Positions 1,539 to 53,757 of a stretch of DNA of 64,000 nt are shown here, one piece after another. Origin of the DNA: Escherichia phage EJP2. Positions within the stretch are counted from its first letter, which is position 1, and each line of letters starts with the position of its first letter. Location: the sequence record OQ411014.1; one strand, given 5' to 3'. The notes below the pieces were generated by a model. That model saw nothing but the letters and a program-made list of their open reading frames with translations. It had not been told where the DNA came from and made no database searches. The position numbers were made by a program, and so were the translations under genes.

Positions 1539-1595
1539 ACATATACTTTGAGTGTGTTATAATACAGTCATCAAATAACAAGAAGAGAGGTTTAT

Positions 1596-3329: not shown

Positions 3330-3808
3330 TGAAAAACGTACAACAATACATTCAGAACTTCACCGCATATCCAGTATCAGTAATGTTCGGACATATCGAT
3401 ACACCTACTCCTAAGCAGAAGAAAGCGGAGAAACGTGTAGCAGAAATCTGTGAAGAACTGTATCGTTTTGATTGTACAGTACTATCAGATGTGCGAGCAG
3501 CATTCCGCGAGTTAGATGTTCTTATCTCCTTGAGTGATGATAAGTTCCGCATCAAGCAAGTGCGTCTAACTCGTATGACTGGTCGTTTGGCATATTTTGT
3601 TGACAAAGCGGTTGTAATGCTCGATAATATGCACAAGAAAGACCAGCAACTTCAGCAGTACTGGCAACCGCTGTCAATGAAAGCTAAAGTACTGAAGGAT
3701 GAAATCAAATCATTCCTTATCCAGTACGATACTTCAGTTGATAAGATTGTATTACTGTCTGAATTTGACAATGCATACAAAGAAGCCCAAGAGGAAGATA
3801 AGAAATGA
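3329..3808 (+). CDS. hypothetical protein
   Basis: 159 aa; TAATG-type coupling with upstream gene. Confidence 0.6.
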   Translation: MKNVQQYIQNFTAYPVSVMFGHIDTPTPKQKKAEKRVAEICEELYRFDCTVLSDVRAAFRELDVLISLSDDKFRIKQVRLTRMTGRLAYFVDKAVVMLDNMHKKDQQLQQYWQPLSMKAKVLKDEIKSFLIQYDTSVDKIVLLSEFDNAYKEAQEEDKK

Positions 3809-4305
3809 CAACTGTTTTCGTGAGTAAAGAATTAGGAATTGCTATTACTGACTCACGAGCCACGTTTCAAGAGTCCAGGAAGTTTCTTGGGCTTTTTAAC
3901 TTGACTCCATTACCATCGTATAAAGTTGTGAATCAAAAGGCTTTGTATGTTCATGACCGTTTATTCTTAGCATGTGGAAGTGTAGATACTATTGATAAAG
4001 TATTGCAATATTTCATCGACGGTACTAAGTTCAAGATAAACAAGAAAACTCCAAGCTGTGAGTGTCTTCTTCTTGGTAAAGAATACGGTGTACACTTGTA
4101 CGTGTGGAATGGTAAGATTCATAAGAAGACTATCTTCTTGGCGTATAATTTTGTACACTTCATGGGGTCTGGTAGTTCTGCCCTACTCAGAAAGTACTAC
4201 AAGACTTTAGAACGTAATACACCAGATGAAGTTATTGATATTTTCAAGACTGTACATTTGGATGATAGCTTCACTGACGATAACGTAAATTTATACAGAA
4301 TCTAG
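3805..4305 (+). CDS. hypothetical protein
   Basis: 166 aa; ATGA overlap with upstream gene. Confidence 0.6.
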   Translation: MTTVFVSKELGIAITDSRATFQESRKFLGLFNLTPLPSYKVVNQKALYVHDRLFLACGSVDTIDKVLQYFIDGTKFKINKKTPSCECLLLGKEYGVHLYVWNGKIHKKTIFLAYNFVHFMGSGSSALLRKYYKTLERNTPDEVIDIFKTVHLDDSFTDDNVNLYRI

Positions 4306-4334
4306 TTGACAGTCTAAAAGAGATATCATATAAT
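4306..4334 (+). promoter_or_regulatory. sigma70-type promoter
   Basis: TTGACA-N17-TATAAT (ttgacagtctaaaagagatatcatataat). Confidence 0.65.
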
Positions 4335-4364
4335 CATTGCATACCACAACGAGAGAGAAACAAA

Positions 4365-4511
4365 ATGAGTACATTCATCGTAGAATATGTTCTGACTGGT
4401 CAAAGCATCTGGCAGGTACAAATGGTAAAAGCATGTAATAAAGAGCAAGCCCAGAGCACGCTCAAGAAAATGATTTCTGGTGTAGTAACCACCAAAGCAT
4501 ACCCAGCATAA
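4365..4511 (+). CDS. hypothetical small protein (48 aa), below ORF-track cutoff
   Basis: ATG with RBS gagagag upstream, flanked by promoter 4306-4334 and terminator 4526-4554; preferred over the antisense 4326-4562 ORF. Confidence 0.4.
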   Translation: MSTFIVEYVLTGQSIWQVQMVKACNKEQAQSTLKKMISGVVTTKAYPA

Positions 4512-4525
4512 TTTAGAGCTATAAT

Positions 4526-4554
4526 GAATCCGCTCTGTGCGGATTCTTTTTTTT
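4526..4554 (+). terminator. rho-independent terminator
   Basis: hairpin gaatccgc-tctgt-gcggattc followed by T8. Confidence 0.7.
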
Positions 4555-4573
4555 AATATCAAAGGAGAAAGTA

Positions 4574-5566
4574 ATGACTGTAAAACAACTCAATCTAGAA
4601 TCTATTCAAGACGATATCATGGATGAATGTTTTGTAAATGAAAACAATACGTTCGAGCGTATTAGTGAACAGTCACATGACAGTACTGAAGAAGTAGAAG
4701 AAAGTACTGATGACGTAGGTTCTTTCAAGACTTACAACACATCTAGCGTTTTACCAGAAGGTGAGACGAATGAATCTATTATTCGTTTAATCCGTGACGG
4801 TATCAATGTGAAGCGTAACATTGACCTTATCGTACGTAACAACGTAGGCTTAGTATATAGCCAAGCACGTCAGTGTACTTGTAATATCCCATTCCAAGAT
4901 AAAGCACAGTACGCTTTTGAAGGTCTAATGCGTGCAATCCATCGTTATGATGTGAATCAGAATATTCTTTTCAGTACTTACGCTACTGTGTCTATTCGCC
5001 AAACACTCTATAACTTTGGTAATGATGAAGTTCGTCTAATCAGTATTCCACGTCACTTGTCAGTGGATAACATCAAGATTCAGAACTACATTGAGAAGCA
5101 TCGTTCTAAGTTCGGTCGTACCCCAAGTGAAGATGAAATCAGTACTGCTACTGGCATCAAGTTATCCGCAGTGAAACGTGTAGTGCAGTACATGAACAGT
5201 AAGCCAATGAGTTTCGATACTCCAATGGGTTCTGACAGTACTGAAAACGATATGAGCTTAGTGGATGTAATCCCAGGAACTTCCAATGATTACACACTAA
5301 GTGCAGATACAGTTCAGAAAGCACCACTAGATGTAATTGCATTGGTCATGTCTGAACTACCAGAAGAAGAGCAGTTGCTGATCAATAAGATTCACGGCTT
5401 GAATGGACATGAAGAAAGTACTTTTATTGCTCTAGAGACTGCTGGATTGGTAGATGCGAAGGGTAAGAAGCTAACTAACCGTTGCACTATTCATCGTCGT
5501 TACAATGCAATACTGGATAAGATTCGTAATATTCTAAAAGCACGTGACATTTCATTCGATGACTGA
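4574..5566 (+). CDS. sigma-70 family RNA polymerase sigma factor (phage-encoded)
   Basis: 330 aa; region-2-like FSTYATVSIRQTLYNF (compare FSTYATWWIRQ of sigma70) and a C-terminal HTH-like region-4 segment; acidic N-terminus. Confidence 0.65.
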   Translation: MTVKQLNLESIQDDIMDECFVNENNTFERISEQSHDSTEEVEESTDDVGSFKTYNTSSVLPEGETNESIIRLIRDGINVKRNIDLIVRNNVGLVYSQARQCTCNIPFQDKAQYAFEGLMRAIHRYDVNQNILFSTYATVSIRQTLYNFGNDEVRLISIPRHLSVDNIKIQNYIEKHRSKFGRTPSEDEISTATGIKLSAVKRVVQYMNSKPMSFDTPMGSDSTENDMSLVDVIPGTSNDYTLSADTVQKAPLDVIALVMSELPEEEQLLINKIHGLNGHEESTFIALETAGLVDAKGKKLTNRCTIHRRYNAILDKIRNILKARDISFDD

Positions 5567-5726
5567 TATGATTCGTTACAAGGCAAACAAAGTACAAGGA
5601 ACTGCTGTTGTAGTTTTCTTGTACTGGACTGAGAATCCGGTCTATGTTCTGGCAGAGAACAGTACTGTATCGCTGTCGGAGTTCATTGATATAGCAATTG
5701 AAGAATTCAAATCATTAGAGGAATAA
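5544..5726 (+). CDS. hypothetical small protein
   Basis: 60-aa ORF overlapping 3' end of sigma gene; start uncertain (internal ATG at 5568). Confidence 0.35.
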   Translation: MTFHSMTDMIRYKANKVQGTAVVVFLYWTENPVYVLAENSTVSLSEFIDIAIEEFKSLEE

Positions 5727-5730
5727 TACT

Positions 5731-6102
5731 ATGTTGCACAAAGTTGAAGGTTCAAAGCACAATTGGATTGACGAATACGATATCTATGTTGGGTATGATA
5801 CTTCCCCGTGTTGTTGTGAATATGCGGATTACTTCTTGAGTTATGAGATTGAGAGGAATGGAGTACCAGACGAAGAACTAATTGATAAAAGTACTTTCAA
5901 ATGGGAAGAATACGACTTCTATCCATTCGCATCTGCACTGATCGAAAACGTCCCAGGACTTGATGAAGGTGCTATTGCGATGTTCCCAATGATCCACAAA
6001 ACGACTTCCCGTATGGTGTACTTGCACTTGTTTAACGCTCACAATGGTTATTACAGCCACGGGTTCGAAAGCAATACATTCATTGGTAACGGTTCTTTAT
6101 AA
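5731..6102 (+). CDS. hypothetical protein
   Basis: 123 aa; RBS aggaa upstream. Confidence 0.6.
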   Translation: MLHKVEGSKHNWIDEYDIYVGYDTSPCCCEYADYFLSYEIERNGVPDEELIDKSTFKWEEYDFYPFASALIENVPGLDEGAIAMFPMIHKTTSRMVYLHLFNAHNGYYSHGFESNTFIGNGSL

Positions 6103-6111
6103 GGAATTTTT

Positions 6112-6285
6112 GTGAAAACTAAAAACTCAAAATCTTTAGGTACATATGTGAATGGTAATCGCTATGCGAAAATCAGTACATGTATTGATTGCAGTACTGG
6201 AAATACTTTATACTATTACTGTATTCCTGGTGAGCGGGTGTATATCAGTTCAGAAGAATTCAAGAATGAATGGGTAAAAAACTAA
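6112..6285 (+). CDS. hypothetical Cys-rich small protein (57 aa), GTG start
   Basis: GTG 9 nt after RBS aaggaa; CxxC...C pattern (STCIDCSTG...YYCIPG); not in ORF track. Confidence 0.35.
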   Translation: MKTKNSKSLGTYVNGNRYAKISTCIDCSTGNTLYYYCIPGERVYISSEEFKNEWVKN

Positions 6286-7846: not shown

Positions 7847-7876
7847 AATGCTCACTTCGGTGAGCATTTTTTTTAT
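7847..7876 (+). terminator. rho-independent terminator
   Basis: hairpin aatgctcac-ttcg-gtgagcatt followed by T8. Confidence 0.7.
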
Positions 7877-7880
7877 TTTG

Positions 7881-7889
7881 TGATATAAT
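7881..7889 (+). promoter_or_regulatory. extended -10 promoter candidate
   Basis: TG-a-TATAAT immediately after the terminator; a second TATAAT lies 6 nt downstream. Confidence 0.4.
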
Positions 7890-14882: not shown

Positions 14883-14935
14883 TATAAATAACGGTATAGA
14901 AAAACACTATATGAAATCTATGGAGAGAAATCAAA

Positions 14936-16456
14936 ATGCCAAATGATATGAAACACAAGAATGGTGCATTAGTACAACACTCTGACAAATGGAGTGAAGC
15001 TAATCGTCGTAAGAATTCACACAACGCAGGCCAAGGATCTCGTGGCTCTCGCAATCAGGGGACTGGTGAAGCTGGTAAAGCTAATACAGTTGCTTCTGGT
15101 GGTATGGACACTTCCAATATGTCTCAACATGAGAAACTAAAGTACTTCAACAGTTTAGGACTCCTAAACCCTACACAGAAGAAGCAATTACAAGACATGG
15201 ACGCTGCTGCATCTGCACCAAAAGAACAGCCACAGCAAGCTCCTAAAGCTGCTCCTGCTGGTAATCCTGTCAAAGAGCTATCTGATAACTTAGGTCGTAT
15301 CTTTGCACAGAAGCCTAATCTAATTCAAGGTATTGTAAAAGAACTACAAGCAGTACCGAAGGAAGAGCTAAAGAGTAAAGCACAAGCTGTACTTGATGCT
15401 ATGAAAGGCAATCGCAGTACTGAACCAACCGAAGTATTCAGTACTATCATGCGTGCACTTCAAGCTAAACCACAAGCTGCTCCAGCACAGAAAGCACCTA
15501 AGATGGACAGTGCACAGGACATGTCAGATTTGTTTGGTAAAGTTGGTGCTGAAGGTAAGAACAACGCACAACAAGTCAAGAACGTCCAAGCTAAGATTAT
15601 TGATCGTTTAGGTGATAATCAAGACAAGACTAAGCGGGCATTTGACGCATTGAACAAAGCACTTGAATCTTATGTTCCTGGTGAGAAAGACAAGTTCCAG
15701 ACCATCATGAACGCAGTCTTTGGTGAAATGAAGAAGTACGAAGCAGAGCACGGTGAGAAGGTATCATCTGATGGCTATATGATTCGTAAAGACGAAGAAG
15801 GTGCAGTAGACCAGAAAGATGCTCCTAAAGAGCAAGAAGACCTACCTGATACAGTTGATATGGATGGTTACATTTCTCGTCCAGATGAATATGACTTCGG
15901 TTCAGACAAAGAAGGTTATGAGTATGCTATGGACATTTATCGTTTCCTAGCTAAGAACTATGATTATGCTAACAAGTACGTAGATCAGTTTGTCAGTGCT
16001 TGGGATAATTACAAAGATAAAGGTTATGACTTCCCTGCGGAAGCTGCATTCTTTGAGTTAGGTAAACTACTCCAGAAAGATGGTGTAGAGATTGGCTCGA
16101 AAGAAGATACTTCTAGTCTAGATGCAGAATTGGCAAAAGACCGTCAAATGACACCAGGTTCTAAAGCTGAATTGAATAAGCTCCTATCATGGATTGTTGA
16201 CATTGGTAAAAATGCTGGTAAAGATAACAAGAGTATCAACCGCAGTATTTCTTGGATCAATAATAAAATTGATAACAACGGGCGTAAGCTACAGAAAGCA
16301 TGGAGTGATTTAGTCAATGGTGCAGATGAGATCGATATTGATTCTCCTGAAGCATATGAGTATGCGATGACGACTCTAGACAATTCCTTCCAGGACTATG
16401 AAAATGGTAATCTAACTGCTAGTGAACAAGACATCATGCGTTCACACGGAAAATAA
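14936..16456 (+). CDS. hypothetical protein, low-complexity Lys/Ala/Gln-rich
   Basis: 506 aa, largest plus-strand ORF; repetitive PKxxxxAPA segments; acidic C-terminal part; RBS gagag. Confidence 0.65.
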   Translation: MPNDMKHKNGALVQHSDKWSEANRRKNSHNAGQGSRGSRNQGTGEAGKANTVASGGMDTSNMSQHEKLKYFNSLGLLNPTQKKQLQDMDAAASAPKEQPQQAPKAAPAGNPVKELSDNLGRIFAQKPNLIQGIVKELQAVPKEELKSKAQAVLDAMKGNRSTEPTEVFSTIMRALQAKPQAAPAQKAPKMDSAQDMSDLFGKVGAEGKNNAQQVKNVQAKIIDRLGDNQDKTKRAFDALNKALESYVPGEKDKFQTIMNAVFGEMKKYEAEHGEKVSSDGYMIRKDEEGAVDQKDAPKEQEDLPDTVDMDGYISRPDEYDFGSDKEGYEYAMDIYRFLAKNYDYANKYVDQFVSAWDNYKDKGYDFPAEAAFFELGKLLQKDGVEIGSKEDTSSLDAELAKDRQMTPGSKAELNKLLSWIVDIGKNAGKDNKSINRSISWINNKIDNNGRKLQKAWSDLVNGADEIDIDSPEAYEYAMTTLDNSFQDYENGNLTASEQDIMRSHGK

Positions 16457-19641: not shown

Positions 19642-19677
19642 AAGAAAAAAGGAGACTTTGTAGTCTCCTTTCTTTTT
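19641..19677. terminator. bidirectional rho-independent terminator between convergent genes
   Basis: A-run, hairpin aaaggagact-ttgt-agtctccttt, T-run. Confidence 0.7.
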
Positions 19678-20854
19678 ATGGTAAATCAAATTCCGTATAT
19701 GAATATTTGTATACACCATCTGGTCCACGACCTGAGTATCGTAATTTACCAGAAGTAGTTATATATGCTGAAGTAATATTACTAGTACTGAATATGTTAA
19801 ACACTGACTTCATATCATTCACTGTACCGTTACCGAATGGTATCAGGTTAAGTTCATTGCCGTTGACACCAGTACTCAATCTTCCTGAAGAATTTGCTCC
19901 ACAACCATATGCATTTGATGGGCTAAGAGCAACGTAACCAGTATTACTAGTATAATAACTTAGTAAACCAATAAAATTCTCTGTAGTGGCTATTTCAGTA
20001 AAGACTCTAATATTGACAGAACTATTCACTCCATTACCTAAGTTTCCAGCATTCTGGCTTCCCGCAGCATATAGATGTGTTTTACCAGTACCGTCACTGT
20101 ACAATATTGTGAATGCTGATTCAGTTAGACCAATATCAAAAACACTAAGACCTGGGTCTGGTAGTGGTACTTGTGTTAGCACATTTATTCTTGTATCTGG
20201 ATGACCAATACCGAGTTGACCAAATGAGTTTGAACCTGAAACCCAAACACTTAAATCATTTTTTAATATCAGTACTGATGAATTAACAAATTCAACTTTT
20301 TGAACATCTGATGTAAGTTTTGAGAAAGTAGTTAGTGCAAGATAATTACCAGTTGCTAGTTGGCCTTGGTTATTAAAACCGCTTCTATAAAGATCACCAT
20401 TGTTCATTAATATATATAATGCATATACACCAGCATGAACAGATGTTATTTGATTAAGATTCCCTGTACCTATACCAGCTTCAATAAATGGGGTACAATC
20501 AGTATATGATGTCACAACTTCAGTAGATGATGTATTGCCAGTTTGAAAGCTACGGCGACCAGTATATAATAATTTTCCATCCATAGTTTTAATGATAACA
20601 AAACTTGTGTTTGTACACCAAACATCTTGAACATCATCTCTGATTAAAGTCCACTCTAGCTTTTGTTCTGTTGGCTTTCCATCCCCATAGATATAATTAT
20701 CAACTGTTCCTCCACCGATACCATACAATCTGTTATCATCATATAATACCATAAATGCCGGACGAGACGATGCATAAGGTACTAATATTTTTGTAATTTC
20801 AGGTAATGAAGGTGCTTTATTACCATAATTAAGCATTCGTACAAAAGGTAACAT
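19676..20854 (-). CDS. RCC1-like beta-propeller protein, N-terminal MLPFVRMLNYGN (distal member of paralog family)
   Basis: 392 aa; motifs WVSGSNSFGQLGIGH and YRSGFNNQGQLATGN; conserved leader/N-terminus shared with array at 33.4-50.4 kb. Confidence 0.8.
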   Translation of the reverse strand: MLPFVRMLNYGNKAPSLPEITKILVPYASSRPAFMVLYDDNRLYGIGGGTVDNYIYGDGKPTEQKLEWTLIRDDVQDVWCTNTSFVIIKTMDGKLLYTGRRSFQTGNTSSTEVVTSYTDCTPFIEAGIGTGNLNQITSVHAGVYALYILMNNGDLYRSGFNNQGQLATGNYLALTTFSKLTSDVQKVEFVNSSVLILKNDLSVWVSGSNSFGQLGIGHPDTRINVLTQVPLPDPGLSVFDIGLTESAFTILYSDGTGKTHLYAAGSQNAGNLGNGVNSSVNIRVFTEIATTENFIGLLSYYTSNTGYVALSPSNAYGCGANSSGRLSTGVNGNELNLIPFGNGTVNDMKSVFNIFSTSNITSAYITTSGKLRYSGRGPDGVYKYSYTEFDLP

Positions 20855-23852: not shown

Positions 23853-24041
23853 ATGCTAATTTACAATAACAATGGTATTAGAGTACTTCAGCATGAATAC
23901 TTACAAGTGTTTCATGTACAGAAGTTCATGGAGGGTGATAATCCTCGGAGCTATGGTCGTACGATGGATTACTTCACTGTAAAGGAATGCTATAGTATTC
24001 AAGAAGTTCGTGAAGTTGTATCTGAATTACTTGAAGAATAA
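23853..24041 (+). CDS. hypothetical protein
   Basis: 62-aa ORF. Confidence 0.5.
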   Translation: MLIYNNNGIRVLQHEYLQVFHVQKFMEGDNPRSYGRTMDYFTVKECYSIQEVREVVSELLEE

Positions 24042-24050
24042 TATTAGAAA

Positions 24051-24076
24051 GGGGTTGACTTCGGTCGGCCCTTTTT
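24051..24076 (+). terminator. terminator-promoter cassette
   Basis: ggggttgac-ttcg-gtcggccc + T5; TTGACT then TTATAAT ~18 nt downstream. Confidence 0.65.
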
Positions 24077-24116
24077 GTTATAATCATTACATCGACAACC
24101 AATAGGAAATCTAAAA

Positions 24117-24779
24117 ATGCCAATTCCATTGTTTCATGAAAGTAATACATTCACTATCTACAAAAATAATGGCGAACTGAAGACTATTCACTTCACTGGT
24201 CACAAAGTAGGTTTGTATTACAAGTTGTATTCAATCCTACGTAAGAGTCACAACTTCAATATGCCTTCAGTAACTGTACGTGATATTACAGGGCGGGTAT
24301 TATCCAATGGAAACTTCTTGGATATCTATTTTGAGTTGATTGATGTATTGAAAGCAGAACACAAGTACTCAATCATGACGACCAATAGTGTTGGTGAAGA
24401 TCTATATCACTTCCGTGATGAACCTGAAGGTGTACTGCAACAACTGAAGCATCTGAGAGATACATATACTAAAAATGGTGATCCGCGTCGTTTTGAATAT
24501 CACACAGTAGTACGAAGAGATGACTCATCGTTTATTCGTAACAAGTTGGATTATTTGATTATAGAATACCAGAAAATTGCTGATGCAGAGAACTCAGAGA
24601 AAGCTGGCGAAACCGACTGCATTGGTGAAACTGGCGAAATGGGGTTAGGTGTGTACCTGGAGTTCGATGAAGTAGTGAACGATATGCGTGAGCAAATCAA
24701 ATCAGGTACTGACAAAGAGAAGATTGAAGCTAAAGCAGTACTGTCATATATCGCTACTAAAATAGCACTGAAACAGTAA
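24117..24779 (+). CDS. hypothetical protein; C-terminus paralogous to 19045-19641
   Basis: 220 aa; RBS aggaaa. Confidence 0.6.
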   Translation: MPIPLFHESNTFTIYKNNGELKTIHFTGHKVGLYYKLYSILRKSHNFNMPSVTVRDITGRVLSNGNFLDIYFELIDVLKAEHKYSIMTTNSVGEDLYHFRDEPEGVLQQLKHLRDTYTKNGDPRRFEYHTVVRRDDSSFIRNKLDYLIIEYQKIADAENSEKAGETDCIGETGEMGLGVYLEFDEVVNDMREQIKSGTDKEKIEAKAVLSYIATKIALKQ

Positions 24780-24785
24780 AATAAA

Positions 24786-24811
24786 AGGGTTGACTTCGGT
24801 CGGCCCTTTTT
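24786..24811 (+). terminator. terminator-promoter cassette
   Basis: gggttgac-ttcg-gtcggccc + T5 then TATAAT. Confidence 0.65.
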
Positions 24812-24849
24812 GCTATAATCATTTCAACTTCTGATGAAAGGAAAATTAT

Positions 24850-33385: not shown

Positions 33386-34516
33386 TTAAAATGGTAAATC
33401 TATTTGTTTGGTAATCGTCATACCTAAAGGTATTGAACACATTGACATATTTTTCCCATTTAGATTGGAAGGCGGCTGTCCGTTCATCCATATATTGGTA
33501 TCGTCATAGAATGTACTCCACCACGTAGAACCACCTTCTATGTGAATATTTTGATTAAAATCAGCGAATTGGCATTCTTGAAAAACTTCAAAAAACGGAA
33601 TAGATGATAAACTACTACTAGTAAATGGTGTATATCCTGTTGCCATTAACTTATTCGTATCTGAATTTACTAAAAAGATAACATTACCTGCATTGTATGG
33701 TACATATTTGGGATATAAATTACTCATATCACCAATAGGGAAGTTAATATTAAATATTTTACTATGCGTACCCGTTCCTGAAAGTGTAGTACCAGTTACG
33801 TATATTTTATTATCAGTTGTACCCATAATAAACCCAATACCAAACCCAGAACAAAATGTAATGTCGTATGAAACATTATCAAATAGTTGAACAAACGTAG
33901 TTACATCACCTGCTGGACTTTGTATTTGTAAACTATTGTTTGCACCTGCTCCCCAAACAGTTCCGTTACTTTTCACTTTGAATAAAGTATCTCCTATATA
34001 GTGACCATATATGCTATCAACTTCAGTATCAAGTTCTGTCCATTGTGACACAAAGTTTTTATGCCCTAAACCTAAACACCCATTACGATTAAGCCCTCTA
34101 CCGTACAATGTACCATCATTCATCAATACAAATACTGTATATCCACATAACATTTTTTTAATTTGTGTAACGTCGATACCATTAAAATACCCACTCCAAT
34201 CTGCATAACCTTGTTGCATTGTCGAAGAATTTGTAAATGCTTGTGTTGGCCCTGAACCATATATTTTACCACCTTTAATAATGACTGAAAACGATCCCAA
34301 CCACACATCTTGAACATCCTGAGCAATTGTTTTCAATTCACCATATGCAGTTAAGGGAGTACTTTGCCCTGAACTATATGTTGAATCTTCTCCGTGTGCA
34401 TATAATGTTCCATCTTGTGTTAGAATCATTTCTAAGTAAACAGCACTTACACTTTTCTTTATTTTATTAACTTCTATTTTATTTCCGTACTTCAACATCC
34501 TTGCAAAAGGTAACAT
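33386..34516 (-). CDS. RCC1-like beta-propeller paralog, N-terminal MLPFARMLKYGN
   Basis: 376 aa; YGRGLNRNGCLGLGHK-type repeats; 9 bp downstream of preceding paralog (likely co-transcribed). Confidence 0.8.
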   Translation of the reverse strand: MLPFARMLKYGNKIEVNKIKKSVSAVYLEMILTQDGTLYAHGEDSTYSSGQSTPLTAYGELKTIAQDVQDVWLGSFSVIIKGGKIYGSGPTQAFTNSSTMQQGYADWSGYFNGIDVTQIKKMLCGYTVFVLMNDGTLYGRGLNRNGCLGLGHKNFVSQWTELDTEVDSIYGHYIGDTLFKVKSNGTVWGAGANNSLQIQSPAGDVTTFVQLFDNVSYDITFCSGFGIGFIMGTTDNKIYVTGTTLSGTGTHSKIFNINFPIGDMSNLYPKYVPYNAGNVIFLVNSDTNKLMATGYTPFTSSSLSSIPFFEVFQECQFADFNQNIHIEGGSTWWSTFYDDTNIWMNGQPPSNLNGKNMSMCSIPLGMTITKQIDLPF

Positions 34517-34525
34517 GATAATCTC

Positions 34526-35704
34526 CTATCGATCAAATTTAAAATCTGTTATGTGTGTCCAAACATGTGGTAATGGTGTACTCAATGGTGTAAATCCAGC
34601 AGGGTCTGACAAAGTACTACCACATGCGTACATAAATTGATTACCAGTACAATCCATTATAGCATAAGAACGTGTAGCTGTACCACATTTGAATCCAACT
34701 GCACTGCTTGGTGTTGGTAATACTTCAAATGTTAGTGCATTTGATGAACCACCACCATCCTTTGTACCTGCGATGTATAGTACTCCATTATTATCAATGA
34801 TTAAGTTGGTCCAATATGCTTGTTCTCTCCCAGCAAGGAAATATGATAAATCACCTGGTACAAATGGTAATGTTCCTTTATACATGGTAGTATTAACATT
34901 CACTGGTGCTCCAGATACACCCCAAGCACTCATGAAGTTTCTTCCACTTGCGTAGAATGTAGTTCCTTTACCGTAAAGTATTAACGTCGCTTGACTTGTA
35001 CGCATTGCATTGTATTCAAACTCAGGATCATCAGTTGCGTTCTTAAAAATCTGTGTCCATGATGTGATATTTCCAGCAGTTGTTACGCCCATTTGATAAT
35101 AATAATTATCACCAGTAGCATAGAATTCTTTTGGTCCAGTTTGCACAACTGCATTACTATTAGTGAGCCAAAAATTCAAAGTTCCAGTTCTTACTATAGT
35201 TGGTGTAAAATTACCGACTGTGTTTCCTTTACCGAAATAACCATTCGCGTTATCCCCATGACCCCACACATCACCATTTGTTGTACGTATGAATAATGTA
35301 CCAGTATTGAAAGCAACTTTTTCTATAGTACTGATATCAATACCAGCCGAAGTGTACTTCGATGTGAAATCTTGAAAAGTACCCCAATAATTAGATGAAC
35401 CATTAAACATTGCTTGTCTACCAGTGTACTTCACTTTATTATCATTAGTTATAAGTAACGTCCCCCACACTGACGCGAACATCAACTTAACATTTTCCAT
35501 AACGAAATATGGTTTACCATATGCCGCAGCGGTAGAGTTCCTCCCTAAAAGTTGACCATTATTACTACAACCCCATACTTCGCCATTATCCAATAGCATT
35601 AACATTGTAGGCTTACCCGATGACACATCCAAGAAGAAATCCACGGGTGTTGCACCTTTCGGTATCACATTTCCATATTCTAACATCCTTACAAAAGGTA
35701 ACAT
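34526..35704 (-). CDS. beta-propeller-like paralog, N-terminal MLPFVRMLEYGN
   Basis: track ORF extends to TTG at 35710; ATG at 35704 follows GGAGA; Gly/Thr/Asn-rich repeat body. Confidence 0.8.
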   Translation of the reverse strand: MLPFVRMLEYGNVIPKGATPVDFFLDVSSGKPTMLMLLDNGEVWGCSNNGQLLGRNSTAAAYGKPYFVMENVKLMFASVWGTLLITNDNKVKYTGRQAMFNGSSNYWGTFQDFTSKYTSAGIDISTIEKVAFNTGTLFIRTTNGDVWGHGDNANGYFGKGNTVGNFTPTIVRTGTLNFWLTNSNAVVQTGPKEFYATGDNYYYQMGVTTAGNITSWTQIFKNATDDPEFEYNAMRTSQATLILYGKGTTFYASGRNFMSAWGVSGAPVNVNTTMYKGTLPFVPGDLSYFLAGREQAYWTNLIIDNNGVLYIAGTKDGGGSSNALTFEVLPTPSSAVGFKCGTATRSYAIMDCTGNQFMYACGSTLSDPAGFTPLSTPLPHVWTHITDFKFDR

Positions 35705-35740
35705 AATCAAATCTCCGTAATTAAATCATACAGTATTTAC

Positions 35741-35771
35741 AAAAAAAATGCCAGTACATATTTCAGTACTA
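35741..35771 (-). terminator. rho-independent terminator within paralog array (example)
   Basis: minus strand: agtactgaaatatgtactggc followed by T8. Confidence 0.6.
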
Positions 35772-35775
35772 TATA

Positions 35776-36942
35776 TTATTGGGGAAAGCGTGGATCGTCA
35801 AGAATAAATTCAGTACTGCTAGTTCCACCATCTGTGATATATGTTCCAGTACTATAGATGTAGTTTCCATCAGTTAGATACGTTCTGAAATTCGTACCAA
35901 TAACCTTAACATTAGGCATATCAGTTACTTCAGATGGTAAAATACATTTTGTATAGAATAGTTTATTTCCACTTGAACCTACACCTAAACAAACATAGTT
36001 GCTGGTATTATAACCACTACCATATACACCATCGGTTGTAACAACAAATGATTTATAATATTCGTATCCCAAATTGACACTTAAACGTTCACCTGCGGGT
36101 TGTTGTCCAGCCGAAATAGTACTATAAGCCTTATAAGTACCAGCCGAATCCTGACCATTACCAAGTGCACCAAATCGAGCAGCACCACCATTATATACGT
36201 TTTTAACTAATGAAGAATTTTGGTTTATACCAATAGCAACAAATTCGTTATTACTATACGCTATATTTGGACTTCCAACAGAAGTTGAATTTAACGTATA
36301 AATGGTTACTCTAGCACTAACATCATTATTATTATACCCAACAATTGTTCCAGTGTAATATAATTTACCGTCTTCTGTATTAAATCCATGCATGGTGCTA
36401 TTTGCGAATATTTTATGTGGGATAATACCATCTGGTATGGTGGCTTTAACAAAAGAACCAGTAATATTCGCTGTAGTATTATTTCCTAATTCACCATAGC
36501 TGCCGTACCCAGTTGACCATATAGTATCATTGGATAATAAAACACTTAGAGAGAATTTTGATGTTACGATATCTTTAATATCTGCCTCTAACAACGCAAA
36601 CAATGAAGAACAATCTGTCCATTGATTAACTGAACCACCAGGAACGCCAATATATGAGTTATTACCACTGAACCAGAACTCCCCATTGAACTTTTGAACT
36701 AATATAGTTTCCGCAGTAACCCATACCTTTTGTACGGAATCCAACGTCGGTGTCCATACAGTAACTTTAGTACCACTGGCATTACCCATACCAAACGCAC
36801 CCGATTGGTCACGCCCACGAACAAATAACTCACCAGATGTCATTAGAACAACCGTGAAATACATAGAGCATTTAATATCTTTTATTGGTGCTGGTGTTGG
36901 GGCTTTATTCCCATAATTTATCATCCTCACAAAAGGTAACAT
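35776..36942 (-). CDS. RCC1-like beta-propeller paralog, N-terminal MLPFVRMINYGN
   Basis: 388 aa; YGSGYNTSNYVCLGVG-type repeats. Confidence 0.8.
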   Translation of the reverse strand: MLPFVRMINYGNKAPTPAPIKDIKCSMYFTVVLMTSGELFVRGRDQSGAFGMGNASGTKVTVWTPTLDSVQKVWVTAETILVQKFNGEFWFSGNNSYIGVPGGSVNQWTDCSSLFALLEADIKDIVTSKFSLSVLLSNDTIWSTGYGSYGELGNNTTANITGSFVKATIPDGIIPHKIFANSTMHGFNTEDGKLYYTGTIVGYNNNDVSARVTIYTLNSTSVGSPNIAYSNNEFVAIGINQNSSLVKNVYNGGAARFGALGNGQDSAGTYKAYSTISAGQQPAGERLSVNLGYEYYKSFVVTTDGVYGSGYNTSNYVCLGVGSSGNKLFYTKCILPSEVTDMPNVKVIGTNFRTYLTDGNYIYSTGTYITDGGTSSTEFILDDPRFPQ

Positions 36943-37019
36943 AATTAATTCTCCAAAATTAAAATAATTATAAGGTATTTAATAAAAAAATACCAGCACC
37001 TTTCAGTACTGGTATTATA

Positions 37020-38402
37020 TTACATACTAGTTAATTGTATTTCTGTTAATGTCGCATAAGTTACGCCTTTGTAAATCCCACGCCAATAAATTTTCCCATC
37101 AGTTCCCATAACTACTAATCCATAGGACAAATGAGCACCAGCATCGTTATAGAGTGTTCCACCAACGTACATAGCATCATATACATCAATGCCAATATCT
37201 TCTGGTGTGAAATTCGCCACCGCCCCAGTAGACCATGTTGGACTTGCAAAATAATCACTATATACACCATGTGCTACTGTTATAACACTTGATCCTCGTT
37301 CATACAACACAGTACCACAAAAACTCATGTGGATACGCGTCGTCTGCGTCGTCGGTATATCAACCAATCCAGCACCTGGGTAAGACCCTGTAGTAATCTT
37401 CTTGTAATCACCACCAGTTGTGTTCAAGCTATTGACAGATGTACTACTCATACCAACGTTGTAGTTCTGGTAGTAATAGAAATTACCACTTATATATACT
37501 GAATACCCACCACCAGTACCATTACGTAATAATTTACCACCGGAAGTGAATAATATACCCTCATTACATGAATCAAAATGATATGTATCAGTTGTTGGAG
37601 CAACAATCTCAGTCCATGCTGTTAGGTTCTGATACGCCCCAGGTGTGTTCGTTAAGCATCTATTACTGTTTGTTCCTTTACCAACCAACGAGCCATCTTC
37701 TAATTGTGCATAAATTGCTTGATAACCATCAGTGTAATAAGTTGAGTTGTGAGCGAAACCAAGAATACCACTTATCTTTTTGACTTTTTGTGTTAATTTG
37801 GTATCTTTAACAAAACCAACAGTCCATTGACCATATGATACAATCTCGTTTATCATACCTAACCCATATGGGCCATTGTACCATATCTCACCCGCATCGT
37901 TAAGTACTACAACTAATCCTTCGTACTTACTTGTAAATGTCCCACTATTCCATGTTACTGGTCCGTTATTATATGCACTTACAACAATCGCATCAACTAT
38001 AGTCCCAACTTTGGTCAAAAATGCACTTACATCAACCCATTGGTAATCAGTCGTGAAAGGTGCACTAGTAGTACTCGCGTTAGTGAACAAACCAGTACTG
38101 TACTGTCCACAGAAGAAATATTTTCCGTTATTATCCAGTACTAAACATCCAATGTTTAATAACCAGAAATCCTTTACATTAGTACGGATAGCTTCTAAAC
38201 CAGAATCAACTGGAGTTTGTACACCAAAGGCAACCTTCTTCGTGTTACCCATTCCATAAAGAGTACCATCATTTCCTAAAATAGCACCCGCCCAGTTCCC
38301 ACCGCCATTTGAGTTTCGTCCTCTACCTACAGTTTGCATCTTTGTACCTTTAGGCACTTCAACTGTATTTCCATAATTTAACATCCTCACAAAAGGTAAC
38401 AT
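37020..38402 (-). CDS. beta-propeller-like paralog, N-terminal MLPFVRMLNYGN
   Basis: track ORF extends to TTG at 38417; ATG at 38402 (460 aa); Gly/Thr/Tyr-rich repeats. Confidence 0.8.
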   Translation of the reverse strand: MLPFVRMLNYGNTVEVPKGTKMQTVGRGRNSNGGGNWAGAILGNDGTLYGMGNTKKVAFGVQTPVDSGLEAIRTNVKDFWLLNIGCLVLDNNGKYFFCGQYSTGLFTNASTTSAPFTTDYQWVDVSAFLTKVGTIVDAIVVSAYNNGPVTWNSGTFTSKYEGLVVVLNDAGEIWYNGPYGLGMINEIVSYGQWTVGFVKDTKLTQKVKKISGILGFAHNSTYYTDGYQAIYAQLEDGSLVGKGTNSNRCLTNTPGAYQNLTAWTEIVAPTTDTYHFDSCNEGILFTSGGKLLRNGTGGGYSVYISGNFYYYQNYNVGMSSTSVNSLNTTGGDYKKITTGSYPGAGLVDIPTTQTTRIHMSFCGTVLYERGSSVITVAHGVYSDYFASPTWSTGAVANFTPEDIGIDVYDAMYVGGTLYNDAGAHLSYGLVVMGTDGKIYWRGIYKGVTYATLTEIQLTSM

Positions 38403-38443
38403 AACTAAATTCTCCAAAATTAAAATAATTATAATGTATTTAC
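38403..38443 (-). promoter_or_regulatory. conserved upstream leader/promoter module of paralog array (example)
   Basis: minus strand gtaaatacattataattattttaattttggagaatttagtt-ATG; near-identical upstream of at least 10 paralogs. Confidence 0.5.
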
Positions 38444-38474
38444 AAAAAAATACCAGTACGTATTTCAGTACTGG
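38444..38474 (-). terminator. rho-independent terminator within array
   Basis: minus strand: ccagtac-tgaaatac-gtactgg followed by T7. Confidence 0.65.
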
Positions 38475-38482
38475 CTTTTTAA

Positions 38483-39652
38483 TTAAGAAGGTAATAGAAA
38501 ATTAGCAAATCCACCCATCCCCAATGTGGGTACTAATCCAGCTACAGTTGGTGCTCTATTTGATGGTGAGCTAACAGCAATTCGACCATCTTTATATACC
38601 AATGAATTAGAACTGCCTGTGCATAAGTATCCACCTGAATATGGTACTGTACTTTGTTTACATTTGGTGAAAATTCCAATGGAAGACGATGCATTTATTA
38701 AATTTACACCATCATATCCACAACTATATATCCACCCATCTTCCCCTATGTATAAAGAAGAACTTGCATTTGCCGAACTAACGAACTTTCTGAATATTCG
38801 CTGATCCATAGGAGCAACTGACAATGTACCGGAATAGAATTTATTATTAATACCACTAGTAACACCGTCACCAAATACACCATAAGAACCTGAACCAGTT
38901 GCATAGTATCGTTTATCTCCCAAGAAAATCATACAGTTGTTATTGCATATTTTATATTGATATATTAAAGTAGTATCAATTCCTGGGAAAGATTCAGTAA
39001 ATGATAGAACATTAGCAATTGTACTTGCGTTGCATTGATGACTTGCATTTTGTCCTGATGATAAAATTGTTCCATCTTGTAGTAATATTCGAGATGTACC
39101 AGTACCACTAAAAACTCTTAATGCTGGTTTTGTATTATATATTTGTTTAAATGAAAAGAAACCAACAGACATTATTCCCTGACCACTCCATCCAGTATTG
39201 TCAGTTCCAATAGCCCATACTGAATCGTCTTCAGCGATAACCATAACACCATAGCGGTCAATGCTAATATCTTTAATTTTGGACATATCAATTGCATTGA
39301 ACCTTGAACTAATATCCTTCCATGTTGTTGTGCTTGCAGTAGGACTTACAGTTATATCATTCCCTGCTATATAAACACTCCCACTTATTGTAACATAAAT
39401 CGTTTGGGAATACCCAGTACTGCATAATAATACATTTTCTGAACTTGGAACCTTAATCCATTCGTTGTAAACTCCAGTTTGGGGCGTAATACCTAACTGA
39501 TAAAAATCATTTGACCCAGTAAGATATAGTTTTCCATCCTTAACAAAACTGAAATTAGAACTGTAATCACTGGATGTAAGTCTTGGTTCAATTGGTACTG
39601 GTGGTACTGGTGCATTATTCCCATATTCTAACATCCTCACAAAAGGTAACAT
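38483..39652 (-). CDS. RCC1-like beta-propeller paralog, N-terminal MLPFVRMLEYGN
   Basis: track ORF to 39667 (TTG); ATG at 39652; resembles 43486-44658. Confidence 0.8.
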   Translation of the reverse strand: MLPFVRMLEYGNNAPVPPVPIEPRLTSSDYSSNFSFVKDGKLYLTGSNDFYQLGITPQTGVYNEWIKVPSSENVLLCSTGYSQTIYVTISGSVYIAGNDITVSPTASTTTWKDISSRFNAIDMSKIKDISIDRYGVMVIAEDDSVWAIGTDNTGWSGQGIMSVGFFSFKQIYNTKPALRVFSGTGTSRILLQDGTILSSGQNASHQCNASTIANVLSFTESFPGIDTTLIYQYKICNNNCMIFLGDKRYYATGSGSYGVFGDGVTSGINNKFYSGTLSVAPMDQRIFRKFVSSANASSSLYIGEDGWIYSCGYDGVNLINASSSIGIFTKCKQSTVPYSGGYLCTGSSNSLVYKDGRIAVSSPSNRAPTVAGLVPTLGMGGFANFLLPS

Positions 39653-39739
39653 AACTAAATTCTCCAAAATTAAAATAATTATAATGTATTTACAAAAAAA
39701 TACCAGTACGTATTTCAGTACTGGTATTGTGGTATTGTA

Positions 39740-40846
39740 TCATTTCGGCATTGTAATTGCAGACCATGAATTTGAAGTAATTGGACCTGGTACGAACACT
39801 GTTGAACCACATGCATAAATTTGTCTATCCCCATCATACACAACACTAAAGCTAGTACAAGTAAACAATGACGAATTTAATGGATTGTAAGTATCTAATG
39901 TTAGTGTATTCTCCCACTGACTTGAACCTAGACCACCTGACCTACCAAATGCACCAGTACTGTATATCTTACCTTCAGTTGTTGCATATATATTAACATA
40001 TGAAGTTGAACTGGATTTAGATATTTTATGTATCTTATTATCAATTGCACTAGGGTTAAATGTAAATGGATATATTTGTACGTTAGTTCTTGAACCATTA
40101 CCAAGTTGACCATCATACTGCCAGCCAGCAACGTATGTACTACTACCTGAATATGCTATAGTACTAGTACTGTTACCGCCCAGTATTTTAACACTAGTTA
40201 AACGACTTACTAAAGTAATGTACTGCCCTTGACTCACACCCAGTGAACCATAACTACTAGTCCCACATCCAATAAGGTCACCGTTGGATGTTAAGATTAA
40301 TGTGTTGTTTTGCGTACCATATATATCAGCAACTTCATTTGTACCAGTATTCAGTACTAACACAAAAGCACTCTGTGAACTTGGATATCCACCACCGAGT
40401 GAATAGTTACCGTTCATGCCTCTTCCATAAACCTTTGTACCACTAGCATCTACGTAGTGCATCGTATCTGAACCAATTGATATCATTTTAATATTAGATA
40501 TGTGTGGGAATGAAGAAGTAACATCTAAACCACCCAAGGGGATTGCAGTATTACCCGTACCTAACTGAGAAGTAACTCCGTGTATTCTGAACTCTTCTCC
40601 TTTGAGATACAGAAGACTGTACCCACCAGCCCATGCATCAGAAACACCCTCTGCAACTAATATCCAAGTATTTTTTGCTGCTGTACCAAAGACATTCAAC
40701 TGCAAATATGAATTATCTCCACATCCATATAATGTCCCATCACTATATAGTACGTACAAATTATTGGTTCCACAAAATACTTTCTTGATCGTTATACCTT
40801 CTGGGGCTATATTTCCATAGGTCATTATTCTTGCAAAAGGTAACAT
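39740..40846 (-). CDS. RCC1-like beta-propeller paralog, N-terminal MLPFARIMTYGN
   Basis: 368 aa; LYGCGDNSYLQLNVFG and related repeats. Confidence 0.8.
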   Translation of the reverse strand: MLPFARIMTYGNIAPEGITIKKVFCGTNNLYVLYSDGTLYGCGDNSYLQLNVFGTAAKNTWILVAEGVSDAWAGGYSLLYLKGEEFRIHGVTSQLGTGNTAIPLGGLDVTSSFPHISNIKMISIGSDTMHYVDASGTKVYGRGMNGNYSLGGGYPSSQSAFVLVLNTGTNEVADIYGTQNNTLILTSNGDLIGCGTSSYGSLGVSQGQYITLVSRLTSVKILGGNSTSTIAYSGSSTYVAGWQYDGQLGNGSRTNVQIYPFTFNPSAIDNKIHKISKSSSTSYVNIYATTEGKIYSTGAFGRSGGLGSSQWENTLTLDTYNPLNSSLFTCTSFSVVYDGDRQIYACGSTVFVPGPITSNSWSAITMPK

Positions 40847-40937
40847 AATTAAATCTCCATATAATAATTATAATGTATTTACAAAAAAAGCCAGTACGTA
40901 TTTCAGTACTGGTATTGTGGTATTGTGGTATTGTGAT

Positions 40938-42128
40938 TTAAGGCTTCGGCACTGGCGGTGTTACCAGTTGATATGTGTTCTGAATTGTATTGTTCGAGAA
41001 TGAACGTCCAGTGTAGTATACGTCACCAGCTTTCGTCAAATAAGCAACGCCGAAATCAGCACCAACATATGTTTCCATGCTGCTAATATTAGGTGGATTC
41101 ACTGGCGGCGTAAATCTAGCCTTGTTACTATTAGTACCATTACCAAACCGACCATAAGTACCATTACCTGTAGTATATAATGTACCATTAGTACTAATAA
41201 CGCAACCAATGTCTGAACCATCACCATTGGTGTTAAGTGTTACTGGAGAAGTTATTACAGTACTGCTATCAGTAAGGAATAGTAAGTTATTATTAATACT
41301 TACAGCATTACTTAAACTACCTGTTCCTAAGTTTCCATTAATACTGTTACCACTTACAATTAAGTACCAAGCGTCAGTTGTTGTATTGTTTATCAATATG
41401 AATGAACCATCTGTGTTCATTGCAACATCATGTGGAATTAGGTTAGTAGCTAAATTGTACTTAGTCCATGAATATATGTTATTCGTTGTTGCCGTAATAC
41501 CCAAGATCCCAGAACTATTCTGACCAGTTCTCCAGAGTGAATTATCATTCTTGATAATCCACGTGGTATTAATGCGATGTGTTAATTTTTTTACATCAGT
41601 ATTCAATTTAGTAAAAGTACTAACCATAGTGTTACTACCAAGTCCTAATGTCCCTCCTAGGTTTCTACCCATACCATATAGATCACCATTTTCTAAGTGC
41701 ACTAAAATATGACTCCACGAAACCTGAATATCAATTATACTGTCTATTTGTGTAGGTGTAAAAACACTCGTAAACAAAGTCGTTATATCAGTCCACGTGG
41801 TACTAAACCCAGTACCAGCAACAATATCATTTGCTCCGGTGTAATAAAATTTATTATCAATAGTCTGAATCAATGCGAACTCAACAAGTGAACATGCAAA
41901 TCTTTTAACATCATGATGTACTAAAACCCAATTCGGATAATTTGTACCACCTGAATCACCTTGTCCGAAGCAGTAGTTCCTTGAAGTTCCACCACCAATC
42001 CCATATAGTGTGTTGTCCTTGTACAATATAAACAAACAACCACTATTACCCGATGGCATATAAATTGTTTCTATTGGTGAAGTAGGTAACTTATTCCCGT
42101 ACTCCAAAATTCTTGCAAAAGGTAACAT
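40938..42128 (-). CDS. beta-propeller-like paralog, N-terminal MLPFARILEYGN
   Basis: track ORF to 42188; conserved ATG at 42128 (396 aa). Confidence 0.75.
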   Translation of the reverse strand: MLPFARILEYGNKLPTSPIETIYMPSGNSGCLFILYKDNTLYGIGGGTSRNYCFGQGDSGGTNYPNWVLVHHDVKRFACSLVEFALIQTIDNKFYYTGANDIVAGTGFSTTWTDITTLFTSVFTPTQIDSIIDIQVSWSHILVHLENGDLYGMGRNLGGTLGLGSNTMVSTFTKLNTDVKKLTHRINTTWIIKNDNSLWRTGQNSSGILGITATTNNIYSWTKYNLATNLIPHDVAMNTDGSFILINNTTTDAWYLIVSGNSINGNLGTGSLSNAVSINNNLLFLTDSSTVITSPVTLNTNGDGSDIGCVISTNGTLYTTGNGTYGRFGNGTNSNKARFTPPVNPPNISSMETYVGADFGVAYLTKAGDVYYTGRSFSNNTIQNTYQLVTPPVPKP

Positions 42129-42215
42129 AACTAAATTCTCCAAAATTAAAATAATTATATTGTATTTACAAAAAAAATACCAGCACATATTTCAGTACTG
42201 GTATTGTTTCTTATT

Positions 42216-43406: not shown

Positions 43407-43447
43407 AACTAAATTCTCCAAAATTAAAATAATTATAATGTATTTAC

Positions 43448-43481
43448 AAAAAAATACCAGTACGTATTTCAGTACTGGTAT
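43448..43481 (-). terminator. rho-independent terminator within array
   Basis: minus strand: taccagtac-N8-gtactggta followed by T7. Confidence 0.65.
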
Positions 43482-43485
43482 AATG

Positions 43486-44658: not shown

Positions 44659-44732
44659 AATCAAATCTCCGTAATTAAATCATACAGTATTTACAAAAAA
44701 ATACCAGTACATATTCCAGTACTGGCCTATTA

Positions 44733-45854: not shown

Positions 45855-45935
45855 AATAAAATCTCCGTAATTAAATCATACAGTATTTACAAAATACCAG
45901 CACATATTTCAGTACTGGTATAGTGGTATATTAAA

Positions 45936-47084: not shown

Positions 47085-47123
47085 AACTAAATTCTCCATA
47101 CAATAATTATAATGTATTTAACC

Positions 47124-47153
47124 AAAAAAAGCCAGCACCTTTCAGTACTGGTA
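47124..47153 (-). terminator. rho-independent terminator within array
   Basis: minus strand: accagtactgaaaggtgctggc followed by T7. Confidence 0.6.
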
Positions 47154-47162
47154 TCTATAATC

Positions 47163-48059: not shown

Positions 48060-48136
48060 AACTAATTCTCCAAAATTAAAATAATTATAATGTATTTACA
48101 AAAATACCAGCACCTTTCAGTACTGGTATAGTAGTA

Positions 48137-49246: not shown

Positions 49247-49256
49247 ATTTCTCTCC

Positions 49257-50387: not shown

Positions 50388-50501
50388 AATAATCATCCCT
50401 ATACAATAAAATTATATAGTATTTACCAAAACAACTATTGACAACACAATAGCAGTACTGTATAGTATAGCAATAAAATTCCCACATAAAGGCCCAACAA
50501 C

Positions 50502-53360: not shown

Positions 53361-53381
53361 ACTTTAAAAGAGATTAAAACG

Positions 53382-53744: not shown

Positions 53745-53757
53745 GTTAAAAATTAGT

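Follow-up and report, generated by a model that had tools for sequence, protein, structure and literature searches.

In the transcription cascades of Bacillus phage SPO1 (gp28, then gp33/34) and of phage T4 (late sigma gp55), a phage sigma factor produced early redirects the host core RNA polymerase (RNAP) to later classes of promoter. SPO1 gp28 and T4 gp55 are small, highly diverged sigma factors, and T4 transcribes its middle genes with host sigma-70 that AsiA and MotA have remodelled. Jumbo phages of about 350 kb without an RNAP must time hundreds of genes with the host polymerase, and reviews, which describe them as dependent on host RNAP and sigma factors of their own, assume that RpoD-like sigmas perform this task (PMC7824862, PMC13282480). 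According to Iyer et al., all 'group 2' jumbo phages are without RNAP and carry two kinds of sigma factor, a minimal gp55-like and an RpoD-like one (PMC7824862). A 2026 review states that such sigmas 'likely' guide host RNAP to phage promoters (PMC13282480), and one of them, CBB_513, has been described as a sigma-70-like factor encoded in the presumed early region (PMC5259590).

Here, we analyze the gene at positions 4574 to 5566 of a stretch of 64,000 nucleotides from Escherichia phage EJP2 (OQ411014.1), referred to below as the window. The gene encodes a sigma-70-family factor, for which the best explanation as a whole, at a probability of roughly 0.55, is that it is expressed early and would read middle promoters in a cascade comparable to those of SPO1 and T4. 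Like the factors of these phages it would redirect the host core RNAP; in contrast to them it is a nearly complete RpoD-like protein with predicted domains 2, 3 and 4. A sigma gene is expected in phages of this type and already annotated in relatives, so that as a sequence finding it is real but ordinary. The comparison with relatives gives a testable pairing of the sigma factor with promoters of the form TGRRAY-N12-TRTGnTATAAT together with a simple cascade model; no promoter assignment was found in the literature.

Identity and domain structure of the encoded protein

The gene and the domains of its product are arranged as follows.

4574-5566, + strand: sigma factor gene, 330 amino acids, ATG at 4574, stop codon included in the coordinates
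4574-4750, + strand: N-terminal extension (residues 1-59) with a LNLESI..(E/D)..DECF motif and an invariant Cys19, then an acidic, low-confidence stretch
4751-5023, + strand: sigma domain 2 (regions 2.1-2.4, residues 60-150) with the invariant loop C101-T-C103-NIPFQDK and FSTYAT..IRQ
5051-5281, + strand: sigma domain 3 (region 3.0/3.1, residues 160-236; PF04539), then a region 3.2-like linker DTPMG....L.D.I
5315-5563, + strand: sigma domain 4 (residues 248-330), from AlphaFold (AF2) models and Foldseek

A sequence-only reading of this DNA had called the product a phage-encoded sigma-70-family factor on the basis of three peptides, all of which are present in the open reading frame (ORF): FSTYATVSIRQTLYNF (residues 133-148), LVYSQARQ...DKAQYAFEGLMRAIHRYD (93-126) and LETAGLVDAKGKKLTNRCTIHRRYNAILDKIRNIL (287-321). 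The assignment is borne out by sequence profiles, comparison with proteins of known structure, predicted fold and annotated orthologues in related jumbo phages. The proposed region 2 similarity holds far beyond chance: Pfam Sigma70_r2 (PF04542) matches residues 87-148 with an E-value of 4.8e-9 and 36.3 bits (gathering cut-off 24), and Sigma70_r3 (PF04539) matches residues 168-236 with 2.8e-8 and 34.2 bits (cut-off 25.3). The PHROG 351 profile 'RNA polymerase sigma factor' covers residues 1-329 (E 8e-51, 174.6 bits). A scan against NCBIfam returned sigma-70 models only, with RpoD_Cterm (TIGR02393) as the best match (E 6.7e-27); all scores stayed far short of the family cut-offs, as for RpoD and RpoS (94.6 versus 354 for TIGR02393 and 75.4 versus 378.7 for TIGR02394).

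A search of the PDB sequences with the single protein found Thermus SigA as the best match along with other SigA, RpoD and RpoS chains (2e-16), and a profile built from an alignment of 20 homologues found SigA, RpoD and RpoS at 1e-28, the alignment extending from region 2.1 past region 4.1 as far as the first region 4.2 helix. The AlphaFold model computed from the same alignment comprises three confident helical domains (predicted local distance difference test, pLDDT, 70-86) joined by low-confidence segments, and the N-terminus is largely of low confidence (pLDDT below 50 at residues 1-6 and 18-58). In Foldseek, the full model superposes on sigma-S and SigA chains across 260-280 columns. Thus, 4574-5566 almost certainly encodes a sigma-70-family sigma factor with predicted domains 2, 3 and 4 and a phage-specific N-terminal extension. 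For regions 1.1 and 1.2, the Pfam scan of the protein gave no match to PF00140 or PF03979.

Two more specific identities were considered and rejected. The match to MzaA, the sigma factor of the anti-phage MZA system, reached 78.1 bits with NF041931 against a cut-off of 800, and the generic sigma-70 core alone was aligned. A late sigma of the T4 gp55 type is likewise not indicated, as no gp55 family occurs among the Pfam, PHROG and NCBIfam matches and the phage Hallingskeid, introduced below, has a separate late sigma gene.

Domain 4 was modelled on its own as well. The AF2 model of residues 248-330 (pLDDT 80) shows the order helix-helix-helix-beta-hairpin-long helix: two region 4.1 helices, the first helix of the helix-turn-helix (HTH) at residues 284-290, a beta-hairpin at about residues 292-300 (GLVDAKGKK) and a long recognition helix at residues 303-323. 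All of the top 50 Foldseek matches of this model in the PDB are sigma region 4 structures, with probabilities of 0.85-0.99 and E-values of just 0.1-0.5; the target-normalised template modelling (TM) score against isolated sigma-4 domains is 0.53-0.76. Because the model matches region 4 structures, domain 4 is regarded as present; on the predicted fold it is diverged, a conserved beta-hairpin replacing the usual HTH turn. The claim of a region-4-like C-terminal HTH is therefore retained as far as the peptide and the predicted fold are concerned, whereas significant sequence-profile support was not obtained.

Relatives in other jumbo phages

Megablast of positions 3800-6200 against 50,697 phage records gave no nucleotide match, so that among phage genomes EJP2 is known at the protein level only. 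By tblastn, Erwinia phage Hallingskeid ranks first, its annotated sigma factor (XPP58477) being the closest relative with 60% identity; RaK2-like jumbo phages of about 350 kb follow at 36-42%, namely GAP32, BF, pEa_SNUABM_50, fHe-Yen9-04, 121Q, PBECO4 and RaK2, in nearly all of which the gene is annotated as a sigma factor. Orthologues with this annotation are found in more than 70 jumbo phages, and a protein database search added 20 further metagenomic homologues. Since no protein match exceeds 60% identity and a DNA-level match is absent, the phage is, by these comparisons, a new lineage of RaK2/GAP32/121Q-like jumbo phages, and it presumably has no RNAP of its own. The gene itself is, on sequence identity, a new member (at most 60%) of a known and annotated jumbo-phage sigma family.

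The RaK2-like factors of PHROG 351 (Hallingskeid XPP58477, GAP32 gp490, CBB_513, 121Q gp167 and RaK2) resemble the EJP2 protein in full-length identity (36-60%), in length (about 320-335 residues) and in domain order; for RaK2 the homology covers 82% of the query (residues 61-330). They also share a position in an early gene block behind a sigma-70-type promoter. The putative recognition helix NRCTIH of the EJP2 sigma, in contrast, is unlike that of these relatives.

Conserved residues

The bacterial group 1 and 2 sigmas (RpoD/SigA, RpoS) align with the phage protein in regions 2.1-2.4, 3.0-3.2 and 4.1, their domains 2, 3 and 4 match the predicted ones, and core-binding and -10-reading residues are partly common. 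Differences are the low identity (at most about 31%), the lack of a Pfam match for region 1.1/1.2, the beta-hairpin in the region 4.2 HTH, the invariant CTCNIPFQDK loop and the phage-specific N-terminal motif. For the comparison of residues, the family was aligned to the C-terminal half of E. coli sigma-70, with the numbering set from its C-terminus (D613). On this reference, the residues that we take to be equivalent to N383, L386, D403, Q406, F427-S-T-Y430, R436, Q437 and R448 are kept; D403 and Q406 are presumably core-binding positions, and N383, L386, F427-Y430, R436 and Q437 positions that read the -10 element. The W433/W434 pair of region 2.3, conserved in group 1/2 sigmas, is absent as we assume it to align and occupied by V139/S140 (V/T/A/N and S/A/V among the 20 homologues), T440 presumably corresponds to an invariant Tyr, and the position taken as H455 is His or Tyr in the phage family. 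A MAFFT alignment of region 4.2 was judged unreliable, as the E. coli recognition helix fell on the phage beta-hairpin, and equivalences there are tentative.

Within the family, the region 3.2 finger and region 2.3/2.4 (FSTYAT, R436, Q437) are strongly kept, and in all 20 homologues, at identities as low as 40%, the sigma-4 recognition helix has an Arg and a Tyr that do not vary. Family-specific invariants are Cys19, the loop C101-T-C103-N-I-P-F-Q-D-K between helices 2.1 and 2.2, and H274-G-L. As a separate observation, Cys19, the Cys101-Thr-Cys103 loop and His274 are invariant in 20/20 homologues over the same identity range and have no equivalent in cellular sigma-70 proteins; Cys19, Cys101-x-Cys103 and His274 could form a metal or redox site.

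A candidate class of middle promoters

The window consists almost wholly of an early block on the + strand and an array of RCC1-like genes on the - strand, and promoter classes were therefore read from 263 kb of the Hallingskeid genome, whose upstream regions can be sorted into three sharply distinct groups, early, middle and late. The early class is TTGACA-N17-TATAAT. Sites of the middle class number 24, every one of them on the coding strand, and their consensus is tTTTGGGATa-N11-aAAAATGTGATATAATA, that is, TGGGAT-N17-TATAAT with an extended -10 element; TGTGATATAAT occurs 22 times in this genome versus 0.41 expected. The middle sites lie upstream of the genes for topoisomerase II, DHFR, primase, ssb, exonucleases, Lon and a gp55-like 'sigma factor for late transcription'. 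The late class, ATAAATA, precedes the major head protein, portal-region, tail-fiber and virion genes. Relatives encode a late sigma resembling T4 gp55 and have late promoters with ATAAATA.

Architecture and spacing of the middle class are shared by GAP32 (TGAAAC) and 121Q (TGGAAC, TGAGAC, TGAAAT), so that its general form can be given as a T-tract and TGRRAY at -35, N12 and TRTGnTATAAT. The same class has been noted as 'divergent RpoD-like' in CBB and GAP32 (PMC5259590). The -35 hexamers vary between phage lineages although all hosts are Enterobacterales, and the start of the recognition helix differs as well: NRCTIH in EJP2 and SHSTIH, SKATLS and SRSSIH in other lineages. The class is bipartite with a spacing of the sigma-70 type, its hexamers depart from TTGACA in a lineage-specific manner and the helix start changes in parallel, which makes the RpoD-like sigma its most economical reader. 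Furthermore, a bipartite, 17-bp-spaced extended -10 promoter suits a factor with regions 2.4, 3.0 and 4.2, and loss of W433/W434 fits a need for near-consensus -10 elements, as in alternative sigmas. The likeliest targets of the sigma factor may then be middle promoters outside the window, a judgement whose odds we consider about even.

Two middle-type extended -10 elements without TGRRAY were noticed in the window: TGTGATATAAT at 7879 (+ strand, 7847-7889), directly after a terminator at 7847-7868, and TGTGTTATAAT at 1553-1563 (+ strand), upstream of a gene at 1596. The 'TGAAACG...TATA' motif of CBB has no convincing sites in the window.

Proposed cascade and alternative explanations

In the proposed cascade, host RNAP with sigma-70 would transcribe the sigma gene early, and the terminator in front of the gene would hold expression at read-through level. 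Early expression is supported by the perfect promoter at 4306, and an early-region placement has likewise been reported for CBB_513 (PMC5259590). The protein would bind the host core RNAP via region 2.2 and domain 4 and redirect it to bipartite middle promoters with TGRRAY at -35 and a TRTGnTATAAT extended -10 element. In relatives, such promoters precede nucleotide-metabolism and replication genes and, in Hallingskeid, also the gp55-like late sigma gene. Since the middle class drives this gene in Hallingskeid, the cascade could have three steps, from host sigma-70 to the phage sigma and on to the gp55-like sigma on ATAAATA late promoters. An extended version, which we put forward more tentatively, would make the protein the dedicated middle sigma of RaK2-like phages: it would recognize lineage-specific hexamers (TGGGAT/TGAAAC/TGGAAC) through the hairpin-interrupted sigma-4 domain together with TRTGnTATAAT, and switch on replication genes and the gp55-like sigma in a three-tier cascade, to which the Cys/His set could add metal or redox control.

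Several findings weigh against this assignment. The middle promoters retain TTG at -35 and a perfect TGnTATAAT, so that host sigma-70 could read them unaided, and E458, presumably the extended -10 contact in E. coli, is replaced by Val in the phage sigma. By sequence, region 4 gave no match to PF04545 or PF08281 in Pfam at E<=1, and a stand-alone profile of the C-terminal 83 residues was not significant against the PDB (E 0.4-0.65), aligning region 4.1 and the first helix only. The target class is extrapolated from relatives with 36-60% sigma identity, and the co-variation of -35 hexamer and recognition helix comprises three lineages only, with an uncertain helix register. Bipartite sites of the form TKGRRAY-N16-18-TAYAWT number 0 in the window versus about 0.9 expected, and the syntenic early region of Hallingskeid has no middle-class site. 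Finally, the literature search found neither a functional test of this sigma family nor an experiment tying it to any promoter.

As an alternative, the phage protein might be a general substitute for host sigma-70 that keeps early and middle sigma-70-like promoters active once the host factor has been inactivated or outcompeted, in which case it would define no new class of promoters. Its closest cellular matches are indeed group 1/2 sigmas, key -10 recognition residues are kept, and early and middle promoters share TTG...TATAAT. However, conservation is lacking at the residues that align with sigma-70 positions reading the -35 element, the HTH has an insertion and the W433/W434 pair is missing. 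The two classes are separately and sharply conserved (TTGACA-N17 without TG versus TGRRAY with TRTGn), which argues for two readers. An AsiA-like anti-sigma was also not seen in RaK2-like phages: among 40 tblastn matches of T4 AsiA, taken from throughout a ranked list of 1169, each belonged to a phage record no longer than 194 kb and none to a RaK2-like genome, which is a weak negative. Taken together, we regard a general substitute as unlikely.

The sequence-only reading had proposed another target, the conserved non-canonical promoter module upstream of the beta-propeller paralogs, which is the (G/T)TAAATA(C/T)-NN-TATAWT module of the RCC1-like array. This array comprises 14 tandem RCC1-like ('regulator of chromosome condensation') beta-propeller paralogs at 33386-50396 (- strand), with a lone copy at 19676-20854 (- strand). 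The module consists of a hairpin CCAGTAC...GTACTGG, a T-run, (G/T)TAAATAC-NN-TATAAT and a Shine-Dalgarno sequence; it is found in front of 11 of the 14 array genes and of the gene at 19676-20854 (12 copies in the window), and two more sites, at 35740 and 44694, carry TATGAT for TATAAT. The Hallingskeid RCC1 array of 8 genes has TAAATAC-NN-TATATT and that of PBECO4 has TTAAATAT-AG-TATAAT. Its conservation in three phage lineages shows a real and ancient module.

The module is distinct from the early, middle and late classes. Its -10 hexamer is a good one and readable in principle by a region-2 sigma, and its 3' hairpin arm, both in the window and in Hallingskeid, puts CTGG(T/G) near -35, with a loose resemblance to TGGGAT. 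The -35 position, however, is not conserved, PBECO4 having TTTCTT and the first array genes no hairpin; for the same reasons the 3' hairpin arm was rejected as a -35 element. The invariant TAAATA agrees at 6/7 positions with the late motif ATAAATA, which the separate gp55-like sigma is expected to recognize, the TRTGn extended -10 that is near-invariant in the middle class is absent, and nothing ties the module to this protein specifically. A sigma with regions 2, 3 and 4 matches a promoter with a -35 and an extended -10 element, so that the bipartite middle class fits better than a module with no conserved -35. The proposed pairing with the array is thus unsupported and appears improbable; the reader of the module could be this sigma, the gp55-like sigma or host sigma-70.

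That the protein is a competitor or decoy, which would occupy the host core RNAP and shut off host transcription without productive initiation while host sigma-70, possibly with an activator, reads the middle promoters, is very improbable. It would agree with a region 4.2 that has diverged strongly, with the lack of the melting tryptophans and with middle promoters that host sigma-70 looks able to use, but a pure decoy would not need the kept region 2.3/2.4 and region 3.2 finger or a sigma-4 fold with an Arg and a Tyr invariant in the 20 homologues.

Promoter, terminator and neighbouring genes

The features around the sigma gene are the following.

4306-4334, + strand: perfect host sigma-70 promoter TTGACA-N17-TATAAT of the early class, driving the operon that contains the sigma gene
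4365-4511, + strand: conserved ORF of 48 amino acids, the first gene after the promoter
4526-4554, + strand: intrinsic terminator with a GC-rich 8-bp stem GAATCCGC/GCGGATTC (4526-4533/4539-4546), a 5-nt loop and eight T (4547-4554)
5559-5726, + strand: small downstream ORF, its ATG at 5559 or 5568 overlapping or abutting the sigma stop codon (ATGACTGA)

Perfect TTGACA-N16-18-TATAAT sequences occur at 10 sites in the window, all on the + strand, versus 0.12 expected from shuffles; by this excess they form a real class of strong host-type early promoters. The promoter that had been assigned to the sigma gene as its own lies exactly at 4306-4334, but it drives the 48-aa ORF, and a conserved terminator stands before the sigma gene. 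Hallingskeid has TTGACA-N17-TAAGAT at the equivalent position. The small upstream ORF noted earlier was confirmed: homologues of the same length are located directly 5' of the sigma gene in Hallingskeid (CDS0174) and GAP32 (GAP32_489, 49 amino acids, with the N-terminal xIVEY motif in common), and neither Pfam nor PHROG gave a match for it.

The terminator hairpin is found in the minimum free energy and centroid structures of the 71-nt segment 4505-4575 (-15.8 kcal/mol for the whole segment, z -2.0), and a hairpin with T-run is present at the same place in Hallingskeid and GAP32. From the end of the terminator to the sigma ATG there are 19 nt, which leaves no room for another promoter; on this layout the sigma gene must be transcribed by read-through past the terminator. 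A GGAG sequence is located at 4564-4567, 6 nt 5' of the ATG. Rfam and tRNA scans of the window returned nothing, and no known leader or riboswitch was found 5' of the sigma gene. Since the ATG of the small downstream ORF overlaps or abuts the sigma stop codon, this ORF is probably translationally coupled to the sigma gene; in Hallingskeid, a 63-aa coding sequence begins 7 nt past the sigma gene.

Gene order in the sigma region is common to EJP2 and Hallingskeid, including the succession of promoter, small ORF, hairpin with T-run and sigma gene; GAP32 has small ORF, hairpin with T-run and sigma gene. The 5' neighbour at 3805-4305 (+ strand) encodes a 166-aa protein (phrog_24804, with a faint HslV-peptidase-like match) that occupies this position in EJP2, Hallingskeid and 121Q; 121Q is without the small ORF and keeps the phrog_24804 neighbour. 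The neighbouring ORFs match PHROGs of uncharacterised function only.

Further observations in the window

About 25 copies of an early-promoter cassette are found at 51900-64000 (+ strand), e.g. at 53758-53830, 56253-56320 and 60592-60660, each followed by short ORFs only. The cassette consists of an A-tract, TACTTGCA or TTGACA, CAGTACTGAA, an -AAGCG-TATAAT -10 element and GTTTTAYATCGAGAGCGGGAAnnnTTCCCGC, the last of which would give each transcript a stable 5'-terminal hairpin. Near-identical promoter-like elements, GGGTTGACTTCGGTCGGCCCTTTTTG(T/C)TATAAT, occur inside terminator-like hairpins at 24040-24084 and 24775-24819 (+ strand), with the -35 TTGAC as part of the stem, and similar GGTTGACTTCGGTCAGCC hairpins recur in the window, e.g. 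near 14860, 17960, 27060 and 61280.

A T4-late-like motif, TTATAAATAAC, lies at 14883-14890 (+ strand), about 45 nt 5' of a 506-aa ORF at 14936-16456. This ORF, which by position corresponds to a 'virion structural protein' of Hallingskeid, would be a late gene in the early block.

By a wide margin, the most over-represented 8-mer of the window is the 8-bp palindrome CAGTACTG, with 104 copies in 64 kb versus 1.1 expected (about 139-fold) and a median spacing of 478 bp (e.g. at 733, 1141, 4681, 5140, 5236, 9551 and 53762; extended consensus approximately TTCAGTACTGAA). Copies are located within genes (the sigma ORF has three, all of them encoding Ser-Thr), within the spacers of early promoters and within the hairpin arms of the array terminators. 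A literature search for CAGTACTG returned primer sequences only. A phage protein might bind or modify the DNA at this palindrome, which is present 281 times in 263 kb of Hallingskeid, most densely in the early region, and in far smaller numbers in GAP32 and 121Q.

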